In this document: positions 2,010 to 64,000 of the stretch, piece after piece | How positions within the stretch are numbered: position 1 is the stretch's first letter | Layout of the letters: every line of letters begins with the position of its first letter | From: a virus | Reading direction: 5' to 3' (one strand) | Length of the DNA: 64,000 nt | UHGV virus genome: UHGV-1882326 | The notes under the pieces: model-generated | The model's input: the letters and a program-made list of their open reading frames with translations, nothing else | Told to the model about the DNA's origin: nothing | Database searches by the model: none | Position numbers and translations under genes: made by a program

Positions 2010-2048
2010 TATATAATAATATTAACACTTTTCATATAAAAAGTCAAT
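2010..2048 (-). promoter_or_regulatory. Sigma-A type promoter (TTGACT-17-TAATAT) with an ATTGACTTT extended -35
   Basis: The minus strand reads cttaTTGACTttttatatgaaaagtgtTAATAT. It is divergent from the Dam promoter. Confidence 0.45.
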
Positions 2049-2080
2049 AAGATATTAATGGATTTTATTAATAAAAACAC

Positions 2081-2112
2081 TATTGACTTTCGCATAAAGT
2101 AGTGATAAACTT
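2081..2112 (+). promoter_or_regulatory. Promoter candidate (ctATTGACTTT-17-TAAACT) for the dam gene
   Basis: TTGACT lies at 2084-2089 with a weak -10 at 2107-2112, about 50 nt upstream of the dam start. Confidence 0.35.
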
Positions 2113-2161
2113 TTAATGTCACAGTAAATATTAATAAAGAAAAGAAAGGAAATAAATTTAT

Positions 2162-2878
2162 ATGAAATATGTAGGTTCTAAAGCAAGATTAGTAAAATAT
2201 ATTGCTCCGATTATTCAGTCTTATATTGACGAAAATAATATAGAAAAATACTGGGAACCATTTGTAGGAGGAGCAAATCTTATAACGCATATTAAATGTA
2301 AAGAACGATTTGGTTCTGATATTAACCCATATCTTATCGCACTTCTTAAACAAACGCAAATTGACGCTTCTATATTTCCTCAAACCGTTTCAGAAGCCGA
2401 ATACAAAGCAGTACAAACAAGTAGAAACGATTATCCAGACTGGTATGTAGGATTTGTTGGATTCGGTTCGTTTGGCGGCAAGTTTTTTGGTGGTTATCCA
2501 AGAGAATTTAAAAATGATGGCATAACACCAAGAAATCTTTTTAATGAACATTATAGAGCATTAATAAAACAAGCACCTTTACTTAAAGATATTCATTTAT
2601 CTTGTTGTGATTTTAGAAGTGCTAAACCTGTGGAAAACTTTGTTATCTATTGTGATATACCCTATAAAGGCACTACAAAATATTCTAATAAAGACCCTTT
2701 TCCTTATAATGAATTTTATAAATGGTGTTTGGAACGTGCTAAAAATAATATAGTTTTAGTTAGCGAGTATTCTATGCCTAAAGATTTTACATGTATTTGG
2801 GAAAAAGAAGTTAATACTATGTTAGATAGTAAAGGAAACGGCAAACCTAGAACAGAAAAATTGTTTATTGTAAAATAA
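2162..2878 (+). CDS. dam: DNA adenine methyltransferase, D12 class (Dam-like)
   Basis: It has the MKYVGSKARL N-terminus, motif I EPFVGGANL and a DIPY (DPPY-type) motif IV, and is about 238 aa long. Confidence 0.75.
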   Translation: MKYVGSKARLVKYIAPIIQSYIDENNIEKYWEPFVGGANLITHIKCKERFGSDINPYLIALLKQTQIDASIFPQTVSEAEYKAVQTSRNDYPDWYVGFVGFGSFGGKFFGGYPREFKNDGITPRNLFNEHYRALIKQAPLLKDIHLSCCDFRSAKPVENFVIYCDIPYKGTTKYSNKDPFPYNEFYKWCLERAKNNIVLVSEYSMPKDFTCIWEKEVNTMLDSKGNGKPRTEKLFIVK

Positions 2879-2879
2879 A

Positions 2880-2912
2880 AGAGAGGAAATATCCTCCCTT
2901 TTATTATTTTTT
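2880..2912. terminator. Bidirectional intrinsic terminator between convergent methyltransferase genes
   Basis: A GAGGAaataTCCTC hairpin is followed by a T-run, and both gene stops flank it. Confidence 0.5.
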
Positions 2913-3425
2913 ATCAATTTCTTTAAACATAATTTTCTTTGGTAACATATTATGACAAATATAAACAGAACTAAAAGGTGGATTTAAACTTGGTTTTTGT
3001 TCGTTATAATCTTTAAAATAAGCAACTCTTTTATTAAAATACATTATTTCAAATTCATTATCTCTAAACATTTCAAAACGTTTTTTGCTTTCAAATAAAC
3101 CTACAACTCCTAATAACATGGCAAAAGGAATATTAAATTCAAACAATCTTTCAAGAACTTCTGTTTTCAAACTGTAGGGTGGATTTGAAATAATATATTT
3201 TGTATTTTCTGGAACTTCTATTTCAAAAAAGTTCTGACCATTTAATAAACTAGAATATACAACCTCATTTGTTTTACTTAATTCTTTTACAAATAAAGAT
3301 TGCTCAGTATCAAAAGGACACCATACCTTCACTGAAGGTGGAATAAATTCTAATATTGGTTTAATAGCATATAAAGGTGTGTAAAACTCATCATTATGGC
3401 TATTTGCAACTTTATCTAATTTCAT
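2904..3425 (-). CDS. Small phage-type N6-adenine DNA methyltransferase (DEFYTP + NPPY motifs)
   Basis: It has an N-terminal DEFYTP AdoMet motif and the catalytic ISNPPYS motif. It is paralogous to 58226..58831. Confidence 0.65.
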   Translation of the reverse strand: MKLDKVANSHNDEFYTPLYAIKPILEFIPPSVKVWCPFDTEQSLFVKELSKTNEVVYSSLLNGQNFFEIEVPENTKYIISNPPYSLKTEVLERLFEFNIPFAMLLGVVGLFESKKRFEMFRDNEFEIMYFNKRVAYFKDYNEQKPSLNPPFSSVYICHNMLPKKIMFKEIDKK

Positions 3426-3476
3426 TTTTTAAATCTCCTTTTAATTTATTATATTTATATATAAATAGCAATACTA

Positions 3477-3794
3477 TTAAGCACCACCACCATATAAATT
3501 TCTATTATCTACTTTTCTATATTCCCAACCAGAATCAACATTATATATTAATTTATCTAAACAACATTTATACTGTGGTTTTAATATATCATAAGAAATA
3601 TCATTGCACCAACCTAATTCAAAATCTCTAATATCAACATAAGTTCTACCTTTAGTTGTTTTCTCTTTAAACCAATTTATTTTTTCTTTCTCTAATATTT
3701 TATCAAATTCTTCAATTACTTTTTCAAAATATTTTATAATATCTGATTCAAAATATTTTACAATAATTTCTCTATCTGCTGAATTATCTTTCAT
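3477..3794 (-). CDS. Hypothetical protein
   Basis: 105-aa ORF downstream of the methyltransferase, with no recognisable motif. Confidence 0.4.
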   Translation of the reverse strand: MKDNSADREIIVKYFESDIIKYFEKVIEEFDKILEKEKINWFKEKTTKGRTYVDIRDFELGWCNDISYDILKPQYKCCLDKLIYNVDSGWEYRKVDNRNLYGGGA

Positions 3795-16623: not shown

Positions 16624-16686
16624 AAATCACACTTCCTTTCTATGTAATCTAAATATTATTATATATTATTCTTTATTTTATTACAA

Positions 16687-16722
16687 CAAAAAAGAGTGAA
16701 TCTATTAAGAAACACTCTTTCT
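16687..16722 (-). terminator. Intrinsic terminator inside the 500-nt gap of the tail module
   Basis: The minus strand reads AAGAGTGtttcttaatagattCACTCTTttttgtt. Confidence 0.5.
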
Positions 16723-17071
16723 TGCTACCAAAAACGTATTACAGGGGGTTTAATGAAAATAAGAAAAATATGCTTAGTTCTTTTTTCCAAGCATTACGTC
16801 ACCATTCACCTTTTATCTCTCGCACATAAAAGGGTTCAGCTTTTTGTGACTAACTACCTATCTAACCATAGGTTAGTTTGAATTGTCACCATCACAGGCT
16901 TTTTTTCAACTTTAGCTGAATTAATTTCATTATCACTATGGCAAGTAAATGATAATGAAAATCCAGTTAAGAAAAGGAACGTTGTGGATTTTTCGCACAT
17001 GGATACGAACAACAATGTATACAATTTATAAGGAGAACATATATCTTTTATTTCCTTTCCTTAACTTAATT

Positions 17072-17107
17072 ATATCTTACCATACTTTACGCCTTGTGTC
17101 AATAGTT
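17072..17107 (-). promoter_or_regulatory. Promoter candidate (TTGACA-17-TAAGAT) with no obvious ORF downstream
   Basis: The minus strand reads ctaTTGACAcaaggcgtaaagtatggTAAGAT. Only a 49-aa ORF without a ribosome-binding site lies between it and the terminator. Confidence 0.35.
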
Positions 17108-17129
17108 ATTTTGAAATATTTCCACTTAT

Positions 17130-30602: not shown

Positions 30603-30654
30603 TTATATTACTCCTTTCATATTTCAAACATTTTTTATATTTCAGACATTTGTG

Positions 30655-30690
30655 AACTACCCATCAGCTAAAGCTAATGGGATTTCTGAT
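30655..30690 (-). repeat. Hairpin motif copy A (CCCATTAGCTTTAGCTGATGGG, transcript sense) in the leader of the major tail protein
   Basis: The plus strand reads cccatcagctaaagctaatggg. The motif sits 60 nt upstream of the major-tail-protein ATG. Confidence 0.5.
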
Positions 30691-31490
30691 TATATTTTTT
30701 TAAATCCTTGTCCAATATTCTTTTTATTTACAAAAGCATCTGCATATTTGCCTTTCTTATTCTTATATGCAAAATGCTCTATAGGCTTTTTAAACTTTCC
30801 ACCATTTGCTTCAAAATTCTTGTTCACAACGTAATCAATCTGTTCAACAACAGCATTAAACAAAGACGTAAAACTATAAAAAGTCATTTCAAGCAAATCT
30901 TTCTTTAACATGCCGTTATGTGCTGAAACAATAGATATTTTTCTTTCTAATGTTATAGGTTCTTTATTCTTATTCACCAAACTATAATATTCATCAACAG
31001 CTTTCTTATAATCTGGATTTAAATCTCTTTCATCTTCATAATCATAGATATTCTGATATTGTATAATTTGAATTATATTATCAAAATCCTTATAATCTAT
31101 AATCACGTCATTTATTTCAAGAATAAATTTACCTTTTTCATTAATCTTGATTTTGAACTGTTCTTCAATTTTATTAAGTCCAAAACATAATTCTATAATT
31201 CTGACAAATTGCCAATATCTCATAGAATGTTTTTCAACTTTTCCAAACAAATCTTGTCCTAAAACCATTTGCAAAAGAAATTGTAAATAAGAACTCTGAA
31301 TGATTTCTATATCTTCAAATGTGTTTTTATCTATTGTAAGCACGTTATAACAGTTTACAAAATCGTTAGCTTCTTTTAACTTAACTGGATATAATAATAT
31401 TACTTGTTTATGTCTAGTAACATAAGGGATAGGTTTGTCCATTTCAATATAGTTCTGATAAGGTGTTATATCAAACTTCATTAAACACAC
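30690..31490 (-). CDS. Hypothetical head-tail/tail protein
   Basis: The probable start is at 31481, where TAATG overlaps the upstream stop. Confidence 0.45.
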   Translation of the reverse strand: MCLMKFDITPYQNYIEMDKPIPYVTRHKQVILLYPVKLKEANDFVNCYNVLTIDKNTFEDIEIIQSSYLQFLLQMVLGQDLFGKVEKHSMRYWQFVRIIELCFGLNKIEEQFKIKINEKGKFILEINDVIIDYKDFDNIIQIIQYQNIYDYEDERDLNPDYKKAVDEYYSLVNKNKEPITLERKISIVSAHNGMLKKDLLEMTFYSFTSLFNAVVEQIDYVVNKNFEANGGKFKKPIEHFAYKNKKGKYADAFVNKKNIGQGFKKI

Positions 31491-34824: not shown

Positions 34825-36018
34825 TCATTGCTTGTTCTTAACATCTAATACAATTTCTGTGTGATTTTTTCCTTGAAGTAAAGAATCTATTGCTTCTATA
34901 AGTTGTTGTTTTGTAGGAATTTCAAAATTTCCTTTTACTCGTAAAATTTTATATCCTTTACTTCTAACGAAATAATCTCTTCTTATATCTCTTTTTTTAT
35001 TTACTTCTAAATTATGCCAATATTCTCCATCGTATTCAATATCTATTTTTTCACCTTGTATTTCTAATAAGCAATCAAAAACCGCTCTTTCTAAAACAAA
35101 ACCAAACGTAACTTTATAATTCGGATAAGTTTCTTTTACAAGCTCACAAAGTTTCTTTTCTGGCTTAGAAGAACGAACATTACCATTTTCAGCCATAGAT
35201 TCTATTACTTTTTGTCTTATCTCTGGAACTTGCAAAATATAAGGTTTACCATACTTTTTTAAAACAGTTTGTACTGCTTTATTCCTTGTTTCTAAAGATT
35301 CAAAAGCACTTTTTCTACCATATTTTTTTAAATTAGTTAATAATGCTCTTTCTCTTATTTCTGAAACTTGCATAGCGTTTGGTTTACCATATTTTTCAAT
35401 CATGGTTTTTTGTGCTTTTTCTTTTACTTCTGGTATTTGCATTGTATAAGGCTTCCCATATTTATTCAAATTATTTTGAACTATTTTTTCTTTTATTTCA
35501 GAAGAAGCAAAAACATTAGAAACGCCATATTTTTCTAAATTAGTTTGCTCAATTCTTTCTTTTATTTCGGGAACTTGTAATACACAAGGCTTTCCATATT
35601 TTTTTAAATTAGTCTTTTCTATTTTCTTTTGAATATCTCTATTTTGTGCAGGAAAATCAACTCCATATTTTTTTCTGTTTGTGCTTTTTATTTTTTCTTG
35701 TACACCTTCTATCCCCATAGGAGTTGTTGTACCATATCTTTCTAAGAAAGTATTTTCTCTTTTTATTTGCGAACATTTTTTACAATATAACTTACCATCT
35801 TTTTCAGTGTTTTTTAAATACCCAACATAAGTAATATTTAACTTTTTCCCACAAATATCACAAAATGCTATTATTCTTTTTTGAGAAGAAGGAGGTAAAT
35901 CTTTAAGTTTAACTTTAAATTTATCAAATCTTTTGGTATATTTATACCCTTTTTCAATATAATAGTTAAAATTTCTTCCTGCCCAAGTCATTTCAATTTC
36001 TTGGTTTTCGTCTATCAT
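34825..36018 (-). CDS. Free-standing homing-endonuclease-like protein: Zn finger, about 8 NUMOD3-like repeats, and a C-terminal Vsr/DUF559-type nuclease domain
   Basis: CDICGKK...CKKC forms a Zn finger. The repeat QEKIKSTNRKKYG / KERIEQTNLEKYG / KEKIVQNNLNKYG... recurs about 8 times. The C-terminus reads DIEYDGEYWH...RDIRRDYFVRSKGYKILRV. Confidence 0.55.
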   Translation of the reverse strand: MIDENQEIEMTWAGRNFNYYIEKGYKYTKRFDKFKVKLKDLPPSSQKRIIAFCDICGKKLNITYVGYLKNTEKDGKLYCKKCSQIKRENTFLERYGTTTPMGIEGVQEKIKSTNRKKYGVDFPAQNRDIQKKIEKTNLKKYGKPCVLQVPEIKERIEQTNLEKYGVSNVFASSEIKEKIVQNNLNKYGKPYTMQIPEVKEKAQKTMIEKYGKPNAMQVSEIRERALLTNLKKYGRKSAFESLETRNKAVQTVLKKYGKPYILQVPEIRQKVIESMAENGNVRSSKPEKKLCELVKETYPNYKVTFGFVLERAVFDCLLEIQGEKIDIEYDGEYWHNLEVNKKRDIRRDYFVRSKGYKILRVKGNFEIPTKQQLIEAIDSLLQGKNHTEIVLDVKNKQ

Positions 36019-40349: not shown

Positions 40350-40395
40350 AGTACCTAGTCAACTACCCACAAGCTAAAGCTAATGGGATTCCTTG
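40350..40395 (-). repeat. Hairpin motif copy B (CCCATTAGCTTTAGCTTGTGGG, transcript sense)
   Basis: The plus strand reads cccacaagctaaagctaatggg. The copy is followed by the same GGGTAGTTgac box as copy A. Confidence 0.5.
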
Positions 40396-40402
40396 CTCTT
40401 TT

Positions 40403-41389
40403 TCATTGATTTCGTGACCGCTCCGCAGAATCAGAAATGGCTTCTTCACTTTGAGGTCTACCAACTTGTCCACTACCCCCACTCATGGTATGAATAGACA
40501 AAAGTTGTGATAAATTGTCTAAGAAATCACTATTATGTGCTTCTTCCAACATTCTCTCAAAATCCATAGGTTTATATCCAAAAGCAGAAGCATAAGCACT
40601 TGAATTAAGCACCATACCCACATCTGCTAATTTCATAATAGCATCTTGCTTCTTTTTACGCCAAAATGGTTGTGTACATCCATCAAACGTAAACTTAAAC
40701 TTAAATTGTTTAGTTTTCTGATTAGCATAGAACTCTAAGAAATTGTTAAATTGAGTATATAATTTAGCTACAATCTCATAATCAGCAGTAATAGCCGCTT
40801 GAAGTTCTTCGTTTGACATTCTATCCGTAGCGTAAATTAAACGGCTTGCAGAACTACCATATCCCACTGTATCTTTAGCGGCAGTAGTAGCCATATCCGT
40901 ATTTTTATCCTCAAACTGTTTAAATTCAACTTCTTCAAGAGGTAAGGCAATAGAACGAACAATTTTATCTTGTGTCATAGAGTTTTTCAATCCACTAGCA
41001 ACAAGTTTCATTAATCGTCCTAATGTACTTGGTTTGACTGCAAATCTATCAGCAACCTCACCAGATTTTGCAGAATCTTGCATTTTCATCTCACCGTAAA
41101 GTATACCAAAAGCACTGGCAATATCTTTATTTTTTTGTAACTTTGCAATCTCTGTGTTATTGAAAACATTCTTTAAATACGGAGCCATAAAAGGAACACT
41201 TGCAAAATTACTTGTGTCAAACTTGAAAGCCCAGAAACCATCATTAGGACTTGTCTGGTGATAAAGAGTAAAAGTGCCGTCACGATTACTTAAACCATTT
41301 GACGGAATATAATCTTTAAAATCTTTACCATCCCATACTTCTCTAAGGTATTTCTTAAACACAGGAGCATAACACTGAACCTCACATAA
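40403..41389 (-). CDS. Portal protein, 3' exon (downstream of the IStron)
   Basis: The frame is open from 41389 and stays in frame with exon 1 if the intron ends at the G at 41390. The track ORF starts at a GTG at 41362. Confidence 0.5.
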   Translation of the reverse strand, partial: LCEVQCYAPVFKKYLREVWDGKDFKDYIPSNGLSNRDGTFTLYHQTSPNDGFWAFKFDTSNFASVPFMAPYLKNVFNNTEIAKLQKNKDIASAFGILYGEMKMQDSAKSGEVADRFAVKPSTLGRLMKLVASGLKNSMTQDKIVRSIALPLEEVEFKQFEDKNTDMATTAAKDTVGYGSSASRLIYATDRMSNEELQAAITADYEIVAKLYTQFNNFLEFYANQKTKQFKFKFTFDGCTQPFWRKKKQDAIMKLADVGMVLNSSAYASAFGYKPMDFERMLEEAHNSDFLDNLSQLLSIHTMSGGSGQVGRPQSEEAISDSAERSRNQ

Positions 41390-41478
41390 CTAAAATTACG
41401 TAATTCTTGGGAACTTCCAACTATTGTCAGAATATTTGCCAAGCTAACCCCGTAGTTCCTACGGTTTTTATATATTAT

Positions 41479-42603
41479 TTAAACACTTAAAATTCTCAAT
41501 CCTTCATTCAAAATATTAATAGAAGCATTATTATCTCTATCTAATTTTGAACCACAGTTAGAACAAATCCAGTATCTAATCTCAACAGACTTTTTACCAC
41601 CATTAACACCACAACAATGACAAATTTGAGAAGAAGGAAAATATCTATCAATTACAGATAATATCTTTCCATACCATGTAGATTTATAAGTCAACATTCT
41701 ACGAAATTCAGACCAAGAAACATCATTCACATGTTTATTACGAACATTTGAGTCTGTACTTTTCATAGATTGAACATCTAAATCTTCAATACAAATAATA
41801 TCATATTGTTTTACAAGATTAGTAGTCAATTTCTGTAAAAAGTCTTTACGTTGATTAGATATATGTTTTTGTAAATTTGCAACTTTAATTCTTGCTTTAT
41901 TCCAATTAGAACCACCGATTGTTTTTCTCAATAACTCTCTTTGTAATTTAGCAAGTTTCTTTTCTGATTTTTCATAAAATCTAGGATTTTTAATCTTAAC
42001 ACCGTTAGATAAAATTGCAAAATCTACAATTCCTAAATCTATCCCAACATTTTTATTTGTTTTTGGATATTGTGGAAATTCTATATCAGCGCAACATAAT
42101 GAACAATAATAATGTCCGTTAGGTTCTTGTGATATAGTAGCATTAAGTATTCTTCCTTGCGGAATTTGTTTATCGCGAATTTTTACACAACCTAATTTTG
42201 GAAGTTTAATATGTTTATTTTCAAATCTTATATTACCACCAGCTGTAGTTTTCATATAACTTGTAGTATAAGATTGATATCTATTTTTCTTAGACTTAAA
42301 TTTTGGATACCCAGTATGCTCTTTAAAGAATTTTTGATAAGCATTATCTAAATTTTTTAATGAATTTTGTAAAGAACATTTATCTGGTTCTTTAAGCCAT
42401 TCATTTTCTTTCTTTAATTGAGTAAGCATTTTACTTGTGTCATAAAAGCTTAAACTCTTTTTATTTTCTTTATACTCAGTTATCTTTTTATCTAAAAAAT
42501 AATTATAAACATATCTACAACAACCAAAAGTTTTTTGTATTAATTCTTGTTGTTTTTTATTCGGATAAATTCTATACTTAAAAGCTTTTTCCAACAATAT
42601 CAC
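41479..42603 (-). CDS. tnpB: TnpB (IS605 OrfB family RNA-guided nuclease-like transposon protein)
   Basis: It has the YRIYPNKKQ N-terminus, RuvC-like D/E/D motifs and a C-terminal CxxC...CxxC zinc finger. The likely start is the TTG at 42597, which follows AGGAAG. Confidence 0.85.
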   Translation of the reverse strand: MILLEKAFKYRIYPNKKQQELIQKTFGCCRYVYNYFLDKKITEYKENKKSLSFYDTSKMLTQLKKENEWLKEPDKCSLQNSLKNLDNAYQKFFKEHTGYPKFKSKKNRYQSYTTSYMKTTAGGNIRFENKHIKLPKLGCVKIRDKQIPQGRILNATISQEPNGHYYCSLCCADIEFPQYPKTNKNVGIDLGIVDFAILSNGVKIKNPRFYEKSEKKLAKLQRELLRKTIGGSNWNKARIKVANLQKHISNQRKDFLQKLTTNLVKQYDIICIEDLDVQSMKSTDSNVRNKHVNDVSWSEFRRMLTYKSTWYGKILSVIDRYFPSSQICHCCGVNGGKKSVEIRYWICSNCGSKLDRDNNASINILNEGLRILSV

Positions 42604-43171
42604 TTCCTTTCATAAATTAACTTATAACATAAACCTATATAAATGTCAAGTTAAATTATGAAAAGAATTATTTTAGTTTAAATAACATATAAAAACCGTA
42701 AGTTACTTTAGTTATATTTGGAGGTTGTCGTTCACATAGGCTCGCTAGTTCCTATGCAGTTCTCTAATGAACTTCTTGTACTTTCATACAAGCACAGACT
42801 ATATCTTATCCCTCACCATTATGTGTTAGGGCCTACCCACTTCCACACGCTTGTGTGTACTTCCCTCAAGAGGAATAGTCGTTGAAGTTTTCCTTTCGGA
42901 CTTACCTGCTAATTGCCTATTTTTCAGTGTTTAGGATTTAACCATGCACCATTCATTCAATTTTTTCTACTTTCGTCACATTCACGCTTATACCATTTAA
43001 GCACATTTTTGTGTTGTTTAAGGTATTACGTTGTAGTTTGAATGACTTTAAGGTTTCCTAGCAATTCAAGTAGTATTGGATGCCAAAAGCATCTCTACGT
43101 GCAAGTTTCCCTACACGCTGACTATTTCGTAAAACACTTACTTATTCATACGAATATGTATTCACGATTTA
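42604..43171 (-). ncRNA. Group I intron ribozyme portion of the IStron
   Basis: On the minus strand an R-like element lies at 42887-42874 (ttcaacgactat) and an S-like element at 42810-42796 (gataagatatagtct). They form the P7 pairing GACTA/TAGTC, with P8 and P9 hairpins between and after them. Confidence 0.55.
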
Positions 43172-43813
43172 ATCAATGTCCACTCCTTGCATACCAATGA
43201 AGTACATCATGTCGAAGTCGAATAATAAACCACTTTCAAAATACCCAGTTAAAATACATCTATCTTGTGGTAATGTTTGCAGAGCATATTTAGGATTATT
43301 TCTATCCATGTTTGTTCTGAAACTTGTATAATGTACTTCATGCCTTAAAAGCTGTTTTACAACTTTTTTAAATTCTCCTTTGTAATCAAAATTATCAAGA
43401 AATTTATAAATTCTTGCTTTATCTGCTTTATAATTATCAGACTTATAATCTTCTTTCTTAGCGTTCTTACAAGTAATCTGCAAATCAAAAGAAAGGAGAT
43501 TTGTGTAGTATTCAATAGTTCTGTTATAAATCATATCGAATACTTCCATAAACTCACTATAAGCCTGTAAATTTGTAGCACCAGTTTTATACTCACTTAA
43601 AGCCTTTATAATATCGTCATATTTTGGAATTTTAGCATTATTGTTAAGATTAACCAGATTTTGATTACTTAACCATGGACTATATACTCCAAAACTATCC
43701 AATCCATATAAACTCTGAGCAAAACTTACTACATCATAAACCTGTTGTTCTGATAACATAACAGGTTCTTCTACTTTAGGAGTTAATCTTTGACTATTTT
43801 TCGTAGTTCTCAT
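43172..43813 (-). CDS. Portal protein, 5' exon
   Basis: It lies immediately downstream of TerL. The 214-aa ORF stops at a TAA that is the first intron triplet. Confidence 0.5.
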
Positions 43814-48599: not shown

Positions 48600-49889
48600 A
48601 CCTTACACTCCTAGTGAACTACTACAAAATTAAAAACCTCGTAATTTCTTGCTTCAACGTCCTCGTAACCTACTAACTCCACAAGCGTAAATTCCGATAG
48701 TTCCTACCGTACTATTTATTATTAAGTTGCACTTAAAATTCTTAGTCCTTCATTTAATATATTAATTGCGGCATTAATATCTCTATCATGCACAGTACCA
48801 CATTTAGAACATCTCCACTGACGTACAGATAAATTCTTTGTATCTTTATTAATATAACCACATACATTACAAGGTTGACTTGACTTTGTAAATCTATCAA
48901 TCTTTATATATGTGCGTCCATTCCAATCAGATTTATAACTTATCTGTCTTGTCAATTCATACCAACCACAATCAAGTATTGATTTTGAAAGATTATGATT
49001 TTTCACCATATTAGAAATTGCTAAATCTTCACTAACTATTACTTGGTTTTCGCTAATAAGTTTATATGAAATTTTATGCAAATAATCTATTCTGGTATTT
49101 TTAATTTTTTCATATACTTTTGCAAGTTTGATTCTTTGCTTCTGATAATTCTTACTACCTTTTTCTTTATGAAAAAGTTTACGCTGTTCTTTAGCAAGTT
49201 TTTTCTCATATTTTTTAGTAAGTTTAAGATTATCAAACTTTTCTCCATCAGAAGTTATAAGTAAATCCTTAATGCCTAAATCAATTCCAATAGAATTGTT
49301 TGTATGCTCTAATGAAATATGTTCTGTTTCTATTAAAATAGATACAAAATATTTACCAGAGGGAACTTGCGAAATAGTAGCAGATTTAATTTTTCCAGTA
49401 AATTCTCTATGAATTTTTGCTTTCACCCATTTAAGTTTTGGAAGTTTAATTTTATTGTTATCAAAAGAAACTTCAATATTATTATTTGCGAAATTTGTTT
49501 TATAAGATTTTTTATTATCTCGTTTGCTTTTGAACTTTGGATAACCAGTATGTTCTTTAAAGAATTTTTGATAAGCGGAGTCCATATTATAAATGGAATT
49601 TGTCAAAGACCATTTATCAACCTCTCTAAGCCATTCATATTCTTTTTTTAGTTGTCTATTACAATAGTTATTCAAATCAATTTTACTCATAGAAACACTT
49701 TCATTTTTATATTTATTGATTTTAAGATTTAAACACTGATTATAAACAAACCTGCAACAGCCAAAAGTTTTTTGGATTAAAATTTTTTGTTCTTTGTTTG
49801 GATATAATCTGTATTTATAGGCTTTTAACATTTACTTATCACCTCCAATCTATTTATATTATATATTCTACTACATTTTCATTAACTTG
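48600..49889 (-). mobile_element. IS200/IS605-family TnpB-only element (copy 2)
   Basis: It has its own TTGACA-17-TAGAAT promoter. Its right end is homologous to the IStron right end (gtaggaacta...agaa(a)ttacg...taatttt(g)tag). Confidence 0.5.
48722..49831 (-). CDS. tnpB: TnpB (IS605 OrfB family)
   Basis: It has the MLKAYKYRLYPNKEQ N-terminus, a RuvC-like core and a C-terminal zinc finger CNVCG...CSKCG. Confidence 0.85.
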   Translation of the reverse strand: MLKAYKYRLYPNKEQKILIQKTFGCCRFVYNQCLNLKINKYKNESVSMSKIDLNNYCNRQLKKEYEWLREVDKWSLTNSIYNMDSAYQKFFKEHTGYPKFKSKRDNKKSYKTNFANNNIEVSFDNNKIKLPKLKWVKAKIHREFTGKIKSATISQVPSGKYFVSILIETEHISLEHTNNSIGIDLGIKDLLITSDGEKFDNLKLTKKYEKKLAKEQRKLFHKEKGSKNYQKQRIKLAKVYEKIKNTRIDYLHKISYKLISENQVIVSEDLAISNMVKNHNLSKSILDCGWYELTRQISYKSDWNGRTYIKIDRFTKSSQPCNVCGYINKDTKNLSVRQWRCSKCGTVHDRDINAAINILNEGLRILSAT

Positions 49890-50564
49890 TCAACCATTTT
49901 CATGCAATTTCTTTAAATTTTCTATTATTAAATCACCGACAACAGCCCAACAAAAGTATTTATTCTTATTCTGCCCATAACATAAATCAAGCATAATATT
50001 AACAAGTCTGTCTTTGTTTGGACAAATTTCTTCTGCTCTTGCTCTAAATTCATGCTGTATGCTCATTACTCTTATATTTGCTTCTTCTGTACTTAAATTT
50101 TTCTCAATCACAATTTTCTTAAATTGCTTAATACGTTTAATGTATTCTTTTTCAAGATTTTCAATATCTTCTCTTGTTTTAGGTGAACTTCTTTGAATAG
50201 GAGATTTAAGAAATTCATAATCAAAGCCTTTGGCTTTAAGTTCTGTCACTCTACCATCAAATTCACTTTCTATATATCGACAAATTCGGTTCATAGTAGA
50301 ATCAGAAATGTTTACAGGCATTTTTATATCGTACCATTCTAAAAATTTTTGCTGTTCTTCTGTAAGATTTTGTTTTTTTCTTAGTTCATTTACTTTACAG
50401 CCATAAAGCATAACACATTTAAGGTCACAATTTTTTATATAACTATCGTAATCTTTCTTTAAAGAAGAATAATTATAAATAAAGTAATAAGGCTTTTTAT
50501 CTGTTACGATTATTTTATCTAATGTAGTGGTACATAATTTTGAAACATACCAATACTTAGGCAT
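49890..50564 (-). CDS. Hypothetical
   Basis: 224 aa. Confidence 0.45.
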   Translation of the reverse strand: MPKYWYVSKLCTTTLDKIIVTDKKPYYFIYNYSSLKKDYDSYIKNCDLKCVMLYGCKVNELRKKQNLTEEQQKFLEWYDIKMPVNISDSTMNRICRYIESEFDGRVTELKAKGFDYEFLKSPIQRSSPKTREDIENLEKEYIKRIKQFKKIVIEKNLSTEEANIRVMSIQHEFRARAEEICPNKDRLVNIMLDLCYGQNKNKYFCWAVVGDLIIENLKKLHENG

Positions 50565-61825: not shown

Positions 61826-61897
61826 AGGGCATTAGCCAAGCGGAAAGGCAAAACACTTTGACTGTTTCATGCGTAGGTCCGAATCCTACATGCCCTG
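61826..61897 (+). tRNA. tRNA-Gln(UUG) candidate (atypical T-loop TCCGAAT, short D-arm)
   Basis: The acceptor stem AGGGCAT/ATGCCCT is 7 bp. The anticodon stem is AAACA/TGTTT with loop CTTTGAC, and the T-stem is GTAGG/CCTAC. The sequence is 72 nt, has a discriminator G and does not encode CCA. Confidence 0.5.
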
Positions 61898-61927: not shown

Positions 61928-62725
61928 ATGAATACTAATATTAAATATTATGAACGTAAAGTTCCAATAGTTGATACTTATTCTGTTAAAGAATTAGAAG
62001 AAATTGTGAAAAATTCATATTCTTTTAAAGAAGTAATTTTAAAATTGGGATATAAAACGCAGAATGGAAGTAATATAAAAACAGTAAGAAACAGATTAGA
62101 AAACTTAAACATTGATTATAGTCATTTTGCTTCTACTATGCAAATAAAAAGAACCTATGAAAATGTATTTTGTAAAAATAGTACAGCTACACAGCATGTT
62201 TTAAGACGGTGGTATAAGAAAATAAGTAATGATAATATTTGTACTATTTGCGGACAGGATAAAATCTGGAATAATAAAGAATTGACTATGATTTTAGACC
62301 ACATTGATGGCGACAATCATAACAATGTAACTTCAAATCTACGGTGGATTTGTCCTAATTGCAACAGTCAGTTGCCTACATTTGCAGGCAGAAATTTAAG
62401 AAAAGGTGAAAAAACTGATAATAGTAATATTGGTTATTCTCCTACAAAAATTAGAAATGTAAAGTTAAAACATACAAGAGAAAAGAAAATTTGTCCTATT
62501 TGCAACAAAAATATCCTTTCTAACAGTGATAATAAAATGTGTATTGATTGCTACAAAAATTATCAATCCAGAAATATTCCTGCTAAAGAAGAGTTAGAAA
62601 AATTAATTTATAATACGCCTTTTGTAAAAATTGGTAAAAAATACGGGGTATCAGATAACGCTGTAAGAAATTGGTGTAAGAAATACGGCTTACCTTATAA
62701 ATATAATGATTTACACAAAAGATAA
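61928..62725 (+). CDS. HNH homing endonuclease flanked by tRNA genes
   Basis: The HNH/Zn motif is LDHIDGDNHNNVTSNLRWICPNCN with additional CPICN...CIDC. The C-terminal VSDNAVRNWCKKYGL is HTH-like. Confidence 0.7.
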   Translation: MNTNIKYYERKVPIVDTYSVKELEEIVKNSYSFKEVILKLGYKTQNGSNIKTVRNRLENLNIDYSHFASTMQIKRTYENVFCKNSTATQHVLRRWYKKISNDNICTICGQDKIWNNKELTMILDHIDGDNHNNVTSNLRWICPNCNSQLPTFAGRNLRKGEKTDNSNIGYSPTKIRNVKLKHTREKKICPICNKNILSNSDNKMCIDCYKNYQSRNIPAKEELEKLIYNTPFVKIGKKYGVSDNAVRNWCKKYGLPYKYNDLHKR

Positions 62726-62830: not shown

Positions 62831-62904
62831 GGAACAATATTTCAACTGGTTAGAAAGTTCGGCTCATAACCGAAAAGTTATAGGTTCGAGTCCTATTTGT
62901 TCCA
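62831..62904 (+). tRNA. tRNA-Met/Ile2 (anticodon CAU)
   Basis: It forms a cloverleaf with acceptor GGAACAA/TTGTTCC, D-stem TTTC/GAAA with a GG loop, anticodon stem TTCGG/CCGAA with loop CTCATAA, and T-arm ATAGG-TTCGAGT-CCTAT. The discriminator is A. Confidence 0.75.
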
Positions 62905-63069: not shown

Positions 63070-63084
63070 ATAGAACAGTAAGCC

Positions 63085-63115
63085 AAAAACCCCCATTAGC
63101 TTTAGCTGATGGGAA
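63085..63115 (+). repeat. Hairpin motif copy C (CCCCATTAGCTTTAGCTGATGGG) in the TnpB3 leader
   Basis: It is identical to the transcript-sense form of copy A, about 45 nt upstream of the TnpB3 ATG. Confidence 0.5.
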
Positions 63116-63156
63116 GAATAGCGGAGAACAATTAACTGAGAGTGAGGTGATTATAG

Positions 63157-64000
63157 ATGTTGGTAGCATACAAATACAGATTGTATCCGAATAAAGAACA
63201 ACAAGAATATTTTGCTAAATGTTTTGGGTGTGTACGATTTATCTATAATCGTATGCTTTCAGATAAGATTGACTATTATAAAGAAACAAAGAAAAAGCTG
63301 AATAATACACCTGCTCAGTACAAGAAAAAGTTTGAGTGGCTAAAAGAAGTAGATTCACTTGCATTAGCAAATGCTCAAATGCTCAAATGAATTTGCAGAC
63401 AGCCTATAACAATTTTTTCAAATGTCCAGAAGTGGGTTTTCCAAAATTCAAAAGCAAGAAGAATAATCACTTCTCTTATACTACAAATAATCAGGGAGGA
63501 AACATTTATGTGACAGACCGATACATAAAACTCCCTAAGATTGGACTTGTTAGAGTTCGGAAACATAGAGATTTTGAAGGACTAATTAAGTCTGTTACTA
63601 TTTCTAAAAGTCCGTCTGGTAAATACTTTGTTTCAGTATTAGTAGACCAAAAAGATAAAGAAAAATTAATTCCAAACAATAACCAAATTGGAATTGATTT
63701 AGGTATTAAAGAATTTTGTATTACTTCTGATGGAGAGATGATTCAAAATCCAAAGTTTCTTAGAAAGTCTGAAAAGAAATTAAGAAAATTACAAAAGGAT
63801 TTATCTCGTTGTCAAAAAGGAAGTAAAAATAGAGAAAAATGCAGAATTAAAGTCGCAAGACAACATGAAAAGATTGCAAATCAACGTAAAGATTTTCTAC
63901 ATAAGTTATCTAGGCGATTTATTAATGAAAACCAAATCATTGCATTAGAAACTTTGAAAATTAAAAATATGATGAGTAATCATAAATTAGCAAAATCAAT
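63157..64000 (+). pseudogene. tnpB: TnpB (IS605 OrfB family), copy 3, frameshifted by an 8-bp tandem duplication and running off the window end
   Basis: MLVAYKYRLYPNKEQQ is intact to 63390, where a stop appears inside the tandem repeat ATGCTCAA ATGCTCAA (63371-63386). The TnpB frame continues from 63388 to 64000 as NLQTAYNNFFKCPEVGFPKFKSK...GIDLGIKEF.... Confidence 0.7.

Follow-up and report, generated by a model that had tools for sequence, protein, structure and literature searches.

The 64,000-nucleotide (nt) stretch of the UHGV virus genome UHGV-1882326 analysed here, called the window throughout, is part of a low-GC (~30%) tailed-phage genome and contains three tnpB genes together with three copies of a 22-nt hairpin motif, CCCATTAGCTTTAGCT(GA/TG)TGGG. 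Copy A (CCCATTAGCTTTAGCTGATGGG, 30660-30681, minus strand) lies upstream of the gene for a 348-residue virion protein, the tail gene; copy B (CCCATTAGCTTTAGCTTGTGGG, 40366-40387, minus strand) lies between the portal gene and the gene for a 168-residue head protein; and copy C (63092-63113, plus strand) precedes the third tnpB gene. Copies A and C match the motif exactly and copy B has one mismatch. As the initial annotation of this DNA had noted, all three copies are on the transcript strand of the gene that follows. The start codon of that gene lies 57 nt (A), 60 nt (B) and 43 nt (C) beyond the hairpin. The recurrence that it reported is also borne out, a pattern search of the window returning these three copies against an average of 0.01 matches expected by chance from dinucleotide-preserving shuffles.

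Folded as single-stranded DNA or as RNA, the hairpin has a stem of 9 base pairs (bp), one of them a T·G pair, and a 4-nt TTTA loop, as in copy A, rather than the 10-bp stem with a 2-nt loop first described. The stem of copy B is interrupted by an internal T·T mismatch, and this copy shows no folding advantage over shuffled sequences (z = -0.9). Among 13 left-end, right-end and solo variants, four of the nine stem pairs are altered on both sides, a count that is illustrative given that the variants were picked by hand, and 87% of cells are paired compared with 21-47% when partners are slid. A covariance model built from 13 hairpin variants scored the three copies at 34-36 bits, with the next best match at 14 bits (E=0.29). 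No further copy was found within the 64 kb, either by a relaxed identity-plus-pairing scan or by the covariance model with its filters off.

The context of the same hairpin in other genomes identifies it as a transposon end. Exact copies were found at 56 loci in public viral contigs and at 35 in bacterial genomes, the latter mostly of Lachnospiraceae (Butyrivibrio, Pseudobutyrivibrio, Lactonifactor, Eubacterium and Acetitomaculum). Of 92 instances, 37 have the start of a tnpA or tnpB gene no more than 700 nt downstream of the hairpin, and in related contigs (given below by L numbers) the hairpin stands upstream of tnpA plus tnpB, or of tnpB by itself. Contigs L032 and L036 carry the hairpin, then an open reading frame (ORF) of 134-145 residues, then a tnpB ~75-89% identical to the third tnpB of the window (TnpB3). 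The ORF matches Pfam Y1_Tnp (E=1.4e-34) and scores 125 bits against the 55-bit cut-off of NCBIfam transpos_IS200. Autonomous IS200/IS605 elements are organised in this way, with hairpin, Y1 gene and tnpB in order. Full elements have a second, variant hairpin on the same strand, 8 nt before similarity between copies ends, and hairpins at both ends in direct orientation were seen in L054, L017, L022, L032, L116, L005 and L031. The right end of L054, for example, reads ...CCAATGAGCTTTAGCTCGTGGG-TAGTTCAC and stops there. The initial annotation had also drawn attention to a box, GGGTAGTT(C/G)AC, that follows copies A and B. It is present as TAGTTCAC after copy A and TAGTTGAC after copy B, and because full elements terminate in it, 8 nt after the variant hairpin, it is the right-end terminus.

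We therefore hold with high confidence that the hairpin is the subterminal imperfect palindrome of an IS200/IS605 element, that copies A and B are scars of such elements, and that copy C is the left end of a tnpB-only element. The Y1 (HUH) transposase TnpA would recognise the hairpin on the single-stranded top strand. A complete element begins after a target motif (TTTAA, TTGAA or TCAA) with a left end of 16-20 nt, whose last 5 nt would serve as the DNA 'guide' to that motif. Next come the hairpin, tnpA and/or tnpB, a guide-RNA region and the variant hairpin, and the element finishes in 8 nt ending in TTCAC or TTGAC, the right-end cleavage motif. Several hallmarks of IS200/IS605 transposons are seen in the elements themselves: a Y1 TnpA gene beside the end structure (L032 and L036), an internal tnpB, same-strand subterminal palindromes without terminal inverted repeats, and covariation of guide and motif. 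Comparison of empty with filled sites further shows insertion 3' of a short motif that is not duplicated, at site A (after TTTAA), site B (after ATCAA) and a fourth site, D (after TTGAA). In IS608-type elements TnpA binds top-strand hairpins, the bases 5' of the hairpin foot locate the cleavage sites, and insertion occurs 3' of a short motif without target duplication and preferentially into the lagging-strand template (PMC3201880, PMC5027513, PMC10055086, PMC13565253). The group is common in Lachnospiraceae and their phages, and is apparently uncatalogued.

At most left ends a TT[TG]AA motif lies 16-21 nt before the hairpin, and the 5 nt that immediately precede the hairpin covary with it. 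GCAAT accompanies TTGAA in 12 of 15 cases, GAAAT accompanies TTTAA in 9 of 11 (counted over independent sites) and [AG]GAAT accompanies [AC]TCAA in all three, as in the pair GGAAT/ATCAA. The right-end pairs are GGAAG with TTCAC and ACAAG with TTGAC. This covariation agrees with the published rule (PMC10055086, PMC3201880, PMC5027513).

Site A is found in empty, solo and full states. Solo A (30652..30699, minus strand) comprises 48 nt: an 18-nt left end, AAAAATATAATCAGAAAT, the hairpin, and the 8-nt right-end terminus TAGTTCAC. Its left end abuts the target (transposon-adjacent) motif TTTAA (30700..30704, minus strand), identified by comparing empty with filled sites, and the stop codon of the upstream 266-residue ORF (30690-30692) falls inside the 18 nt of transposon origin. 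In nine close relatives, in which the adjacent 348-residue protein is 97-98% identical, the site is empty and reads ggaTTTAA/aaatgtctg (the slash marks the junction), or, as far as the start codon, ggaTTTAA/aaatgtctgaaatatgaaaggag...ATG, with no hairpin. L054 (the same as contig L074) and L057 have a full element in this position, TTTAA/AAAAATATAATCAGAAAT-hairpin-...tnpB...-hairpin-TAGTTCAC/aaatgtctg, and the window reads TTTAA/AAAAATATAATCAGAAAT-hairpin-TAGTTCAC/aaatgtctg, its 18-nt left end and its terminus being identical to theirs. A further feature common to the window, L054 and L057 is a tandem duplication of the right flank, AAATGTCTGAAATAT-AAA-AAATGTTTGAAATAT (30619..30651, minus strand), the 18-nt unit of which is present as a single copy in all nine empty sites. 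As a derived mark, this duplication ties the solo in the window to that particular insertion. The TnpB guide RNA is expected to be transcribed from this duplicated flank. A duplication of the right flank was found at 2 of ~10 right-end junctions, two independent insertions of the same tnpB subfamily, and at none of the other eight, and was rejected as a feature of the family.

Solo B (40358..40405, minus strand) is likewise 48 nt long, consisting of the left-end part TGAAAAAGAGCAAGGAAT, the hairpin and the terminus TAGTTGAC, and is positioned directly 3' of the portal gene stop codon and 60 nt before the 168-residue gene. Three contigs (L075, L076 and L080), in which the adjacent protein is 99% identical, are empty here and read cgaaatcaa/tagggta; L077-L079, L081 and L086 carry the same 48-nt insert as the window. 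The hairpin of copy B apparently combines a 5' arm of the left-end type with a 3' arm of the right-end type, the latter together with its terminus (AGCTTGTGGG TAGTTGAC) being identical to the right end of the L031-type element. The left end of that element has an [AG]GAAT guide and a TCAA target, the same classes as in copy B. Its T·T mismatch and poor stem are accounted for by the hybrid origin of the arms. L076, empty at site B, has a tnpB element of a different type (2030-3490 of that contig) only a few bases away, where it separates the 168-residue gene's ribosome-binding site from its start codon; the ends of this element are built on a TTATAA-rich palindrome. The leader of the 168-residue gene is a hot spot for insertion.

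Copy C is the left-end hairpin of the TnpB3 element, a tnpB-only element of which the left part (63072..64000, plus strand) is present, namely a 20-nt left end, the hairpin, a leader and tnpB; its right end lies beyond the window. The tnpB3 gene (63157..64000, plus strand) is a pseudogene with its frame shifted after codon 75 by an 8-nt tandem duplication, TGCTCAAA (63372-63387), and is intact in L017. Its repaired, window-truncated translation matches IS200_TnpB with E=1e-108 and 363.7 bits, under the 425-bit whole-protein cut-off. Full-length copies at site C, in L017 and L045, finish in CCAATGAGTTTTAACTCATGGG-TAGTTCAG. In L017 (6650-6695) a 24-nt flank duplication takes in both the ribosome-binding site and the ATG of the gene that follows; a 29-nt probe of the right flank matched only three contigs, all of them occupied, so no empty site C was found and the duplication is not polarised.

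Site D is near position 1200 in the relatives L133-L146. A 46-nt solo hairpin occupies it in L134-L136 and L146, reading TTGAA/ATAAGGCTACCGCAAT-CCCATTGGCTTTAGACAATGGG-TAGTTCAC, and it is empty, TTGAA/aaaagcc, in the window (TTGAA at 16905-16909, minus strand) and in five relatives. L133 and L143 read TTCAC/aaaagcc, the solo being gone and the target motif replaced by the right-end motif. This footprint is not what canonical excision produces, and such a change would destroy the target motif. Site D is ~35 nt from a stretch at 16845-16880 that was initially proposed to hold a degenerate relative of the hairpin. We rejected this candidate, there being no pattern match within three mismatches, no covariance-model match and no Rfam support. 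The stretch is kept in all relatives that carry the surrounding gap between genes, whatever their transposon content (except L141, where it is partly deleted), and the gap itself is missing from the more distant relatives L144 and L145. The gap (16624-17129, minus strand) is an insert of ~480 nt. It has a promoter of its own, TTGACA-17-TAAGAT, near 17100 and a terminator-like hairpin with a T-run near 16700, and several of its stretches are complementary over long range. It matches no Rfam family and looks like a structured RNA gene of unknown type.

As to their origin, solos A and B would have arisen in place, by deletion of the ~1.2 kb between the directly repeated end hairpins, and the likely route would be replication slippage or short-homology recombination, in the manner of solo long terminal repeats (LTRs). 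Besides site A, a second site supports such a deletion directly. The solo of L013 and L026 occupies the site at which L022 has a full element, and its 5' arm, CCCATTAGC, is that of the left-end hairpin of L022 and its 3' arm, AGCTCGTGGG, that of the right-end hairpin; this exchange of arms places the crossover inside the 10 nt common to both hairpins. For site B we infer the same event. A separate solo, in L042 and L113, has its hairpin inverted relative to the flanks, gtcagaaat-CCCATCAGCTAAAGCTAATGGG-tagttcac in true orientation, with the arms swapped and the pairing kept.

Deletion would also leave the solos immobile. Each retains a left-end guide that does not match its right-end motif, GAAAT with TTCAC in solo A and GGAAT with TTGAC in solo B, and TnpA is therefore predicted to be unable to excise them. 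Judged from these motifs, solos A and B are probably immobile fossils.

The orientation of the copies can be understood in the same terms. Genes and GC skew both switch direction near 54.5 kb in the window, and the five features of the family (A, B, TnpB1, TnpB2 and C/TnpB3) all point the same way as the local genes and the G-rich strand. At other loci, the element and its flanking genes agree in strand at 32 sites and disagree at 4, a bias that selection against antisense insertions would also produce. The top strand would run co-directionally with replication, and hence with the genes. Strand-specific transposition of single strands predicts the sense orientation, and a role at the RNA level would not be needed to explain it (PMC5027513).

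Left ends have a further structural feature, an outer helix that encloses the hairpin and the 5-nt guide (13 nt on either side; in L022, L040, L030, L012, L118 and others). Its sequence varies by subfamily (GGCTC/GAGCC, GTCA/TGAC, CGGGC/GCCCG and GGTCCAT/ATGGACC), and in a script count 10 of 19 distinct types had at least four contiguous Watson-Crick pairs, compared with 3.6% of mismatched controls. MAFFT with RNAalifold did not recover the helix because the loop varies in length. The outer helix is lost in the solos, and we know of no counterpart in IS608 or ISDra2.

Several observations weigh against the identification of A and B as scars of IS200/IS605 elements, or against parts of it. The 64-kb window contains no tnpA (Y1) gene, so any mobility would need supply in trans. 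No full-length parent was found at site B, nor at the most widespread solo site. Both arms of the solo A hairpin are of the left-end type, so that the crossover must have fallen in the last 4 nt (TGGG), or else the right-end hairpin of the parent differed. The flank duplications of 18 nt at site A and 24 nt at site C are not predicted by the canonical, duplication-free mechanism. The direction of replication is taken here from GC skew only. Finally, the hairpins may have an incidental effect on the stability or translation of the downstream mRNA.

A variant of the scar interpretation is that the solos are not neutral debris but alleles selected for resistance to RNA-guided homing by the transposon itself. 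A full element at site A would yield a TnpB guide RNA matching the DNA just right of the element, and TnpB would cut genomes in which TTTAA abuts that flank, that is, empty sites in co-infecting relatives and the products of precise excision. The 48-nt scar would shed the 1.2-kb interior yet keep motif and target apart, so that it would be neither cut nor re-invaded, and the TTGAA-to-TTCAC footprint at site D (L133 and L143) would be another such allele. We regard such selection as unlikely. If correct, it would amount to natural resistance alleles against an RNA-guided homing element in a phage population, and their signature would be the way in which near-identical phages differ in having sites A-D empty, solo or full.

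That A and B are independently mobile single-hairpin miniature elements, of the PATE, MITE or REP kind, inserted as 48-mers by TnpA supplied in trans, we consider very unlikely. The bounds of the solos are exact, running from target motif to right-end cleavage motif, and their size is nearly constant (46-48 nt) at four sites at least; the missing parents, that of site D included, would be expected of such elements, and protein-less minimal IS200/IS605 derivatives do exist (PMC10055086). Every solo, however, has its own left part of 16-18 nt and is found at one site only, and two of the sites hold, in relatives, a full element whose left part is identical to that of the solo; at site A the flank duplication is shared as well. 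Hybrid arms and guides mismatched to the right-end cleavage motif also argue against independent movement, as does the known transpososome, which synapses two hairpins (PMC3201880, PMC5027513). Tested as PATEs, the solos do not qualify, showing one hairpin, a unique left part and a single site each. Nor do they qualify as REP elements, given their copy number and the lack of a dedicated transposase, and the related TnpA scores 30 bits against the 80-bit cut-off of the REP_Tyr_transpos family.

The initial annotation read the conserved orientation as evidence of a regulatory element for the downstream genes, such as a late-promoter or activator site, an RNA-processing or stabilising stem, or an antitermination site. 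The signal does have a direction and is not random, and the position of all three copies in 5' leaders and in transcript sense, the ability of the hairpin to fold as RNA, and the fact that hairpins derived from transposons can incidentally stabilise or attenuate transcripts would all suit such a role. The proposed functions are not supported, however. Close relatives without the hairpin in the corresponding leader, 9 out of 11 for site A and 3 out of 8 for site B, have adjacent proteins 97-99% identical, so that the hairpin is dispensable for the downstream genes. Moreover, none of the three copies overlaps a promoter-like or terminator-like site or is followed by a U-tract, the stem of copy B is weakened, the third 'gene' of the series is tnpB itself, and elsewhere the same sequence marks the ends of tnpA/tnpB elements. 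Rfam found nothing at the hairpins in a scan of the whole window at gathering thresholds. The right-end terminus was also considered as a terminator or promoter; read as a -35 box (TTCACA or TTGACT) it is followed by no properly spaced -10 box, and it was rejected. A regulatory function is thus highly improbable. That the three copies are a biologically meaningless repeat of chance or composition, for which nothing speaks except an AT-rich, repeat-prone background, is practically negligible given the shuffle expectation above and the exact copies at 91 other loci in consistent transposon context.

The other two tnpB genes of the window, TnpB1 and TnpB2, score 480 and 489 bits, respectively, against the 425-bit cut-off of NCBIfam IS200_TnpB (NF038281). 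TnpB2 (48722-49831, minus strand) lies in an element of the hairpin family (48614..49893, minus strand) whose right end terminates in TAGTTCAC (48614-48621). This element has no left-end hairpin and in its place has a perfect TTGACA-17-TAGAAT promoter (49865-49893, minus strand), which overlaps the stop codon of the upstream gene; L040 has a module of ~41 nt, outer helix plus hairpin, in that position, and in hairpin-bearing relatives removal of the module would bring TTGAAA and GAGAAT to a spacing of 16 nt. From this arrangement TnpB2 may be an immobilised, constitutively expressed tnpB.

TnpB1 (41479-42603, minus strand) belongs to an IStron of 1797 nt (41375..43171, minus strand), in which a group I intron is combined with tnpB. 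It interrupts the portal gene after TTGAT and ends in ...GGTTCAG. The IStron is of the same transposon superfamily as the hairpin elements and lacks the 22-nt hairpin. A focused scan placed the intron (Rfam Intron_gpI) at 42775-43141, minus strand, with 67.1 bits and E=7e-17; the whole-window Rfam scan had missed it and returned two tRNAs only. The IStron splits the portal gene into two profile halves, 43169-43813 and 40403-41362. An interrupted portal gene is also found in L075, L079, L085 and L086, and an unbroken one in L076, L078, L081 and L082. Elsewhere in the window, the two tRNA genes (61826-61897 and 62831-62904, plus strand) flank an ORF (61928-62725, plus strand) with weak HNH and zinc-ribbon matches, and a DUF7487/DUF559 endonuclease-like ORF (34825-36018, minus strand) lies within the structural module. 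Each of the two ORFs may be a free-standing homing endonuclease gene.

For annotation, these results mean that the leaders of the tail and head genes carry transposon scars in place of regulatory sites, and that the 266-residue ORF takes its stop codon from transposon DNA. This phage lineage offers a compact natural series of empty, full, solo and footprint states of the same sites, near an IStron in the portal gene. The series should help to establish which ends, target motifs and guide rules characterise this apparently uncatalogued group from Lachnospiraceae and phages, and to test TnpB homing between co-infecting phages; it also illustrates how a transposon can be reduced, by a simple route, to a lone REP-like hairpin. 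We found no description in the literature of single-hairpin IS200/IS605 scars in phages.

The nearest known systems are IS608/IS605 of Helicobacter pylori and ISDra2 of Deinococcus, with which the group shares a Y1 HUH transposase with optional tnpB, subterminal palindromes on one strand, the lack of terminal inverted repeats and of target duplication, insertion 3' of a motif of 4-5 nt and, if replication runs as the GC skew suggests, an orientation bias towards the lagging-strand template. In these systems, too, the bases 5' of the hairpin foot specify where cleavage occurs (PMC3201880, PMC5027513), and the published target of IS605, TTTAA (PMC13565253), is the motif at site A. The present elements differ in the sequence of the hairpin, in being mostly tnpB-only and located in phage genomes, and in the nesting of the left-end hairpin within an outer helix. 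The known IS200/IS605 mechanism is unchanged by our findings. The IStrons CdISt1 and CboIStron (PMC10690162, PMC4227781) resemble not the hairpin but the TnpB1 neighbour, with its group I intron and tnpB, its insertion after TTGAT and its interruption of a gene that must be spliced.

The ISGst families of Geobacillus and their PATE derivatives (Meers et al., PMC10055086) offer a parallel in the sharing of ends among subfamilies served by one tnpA in trans, in the covariation of target and end motifs with DNA guides, and in the existence of short non-coding derivatives. PATEs, however, keep both ends and are multi-copy, in contrast to solos with one hybrid hairpin at a unique site that are predicted to be immobile. 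REP and BIME sequences with their REP-associated Y1 transposases (PMC3333891) are, like copies A and B, single extragenic IS200/IS605-like hairpins, placed between genes and strand-oriented, but REPs are highly repeated and have a dedicated transposase, whereas the window has three copies and no such gene. By analogy of mechanism only, the solos recall solo LTRs, in which one hybrid terminal repeat, left by recombination between direct repeats, marks a former insertion; here the repeats are only 22-23 nt, imperfect and hairpin-forming, and the element is a DNA transposon of bacteria and phages.

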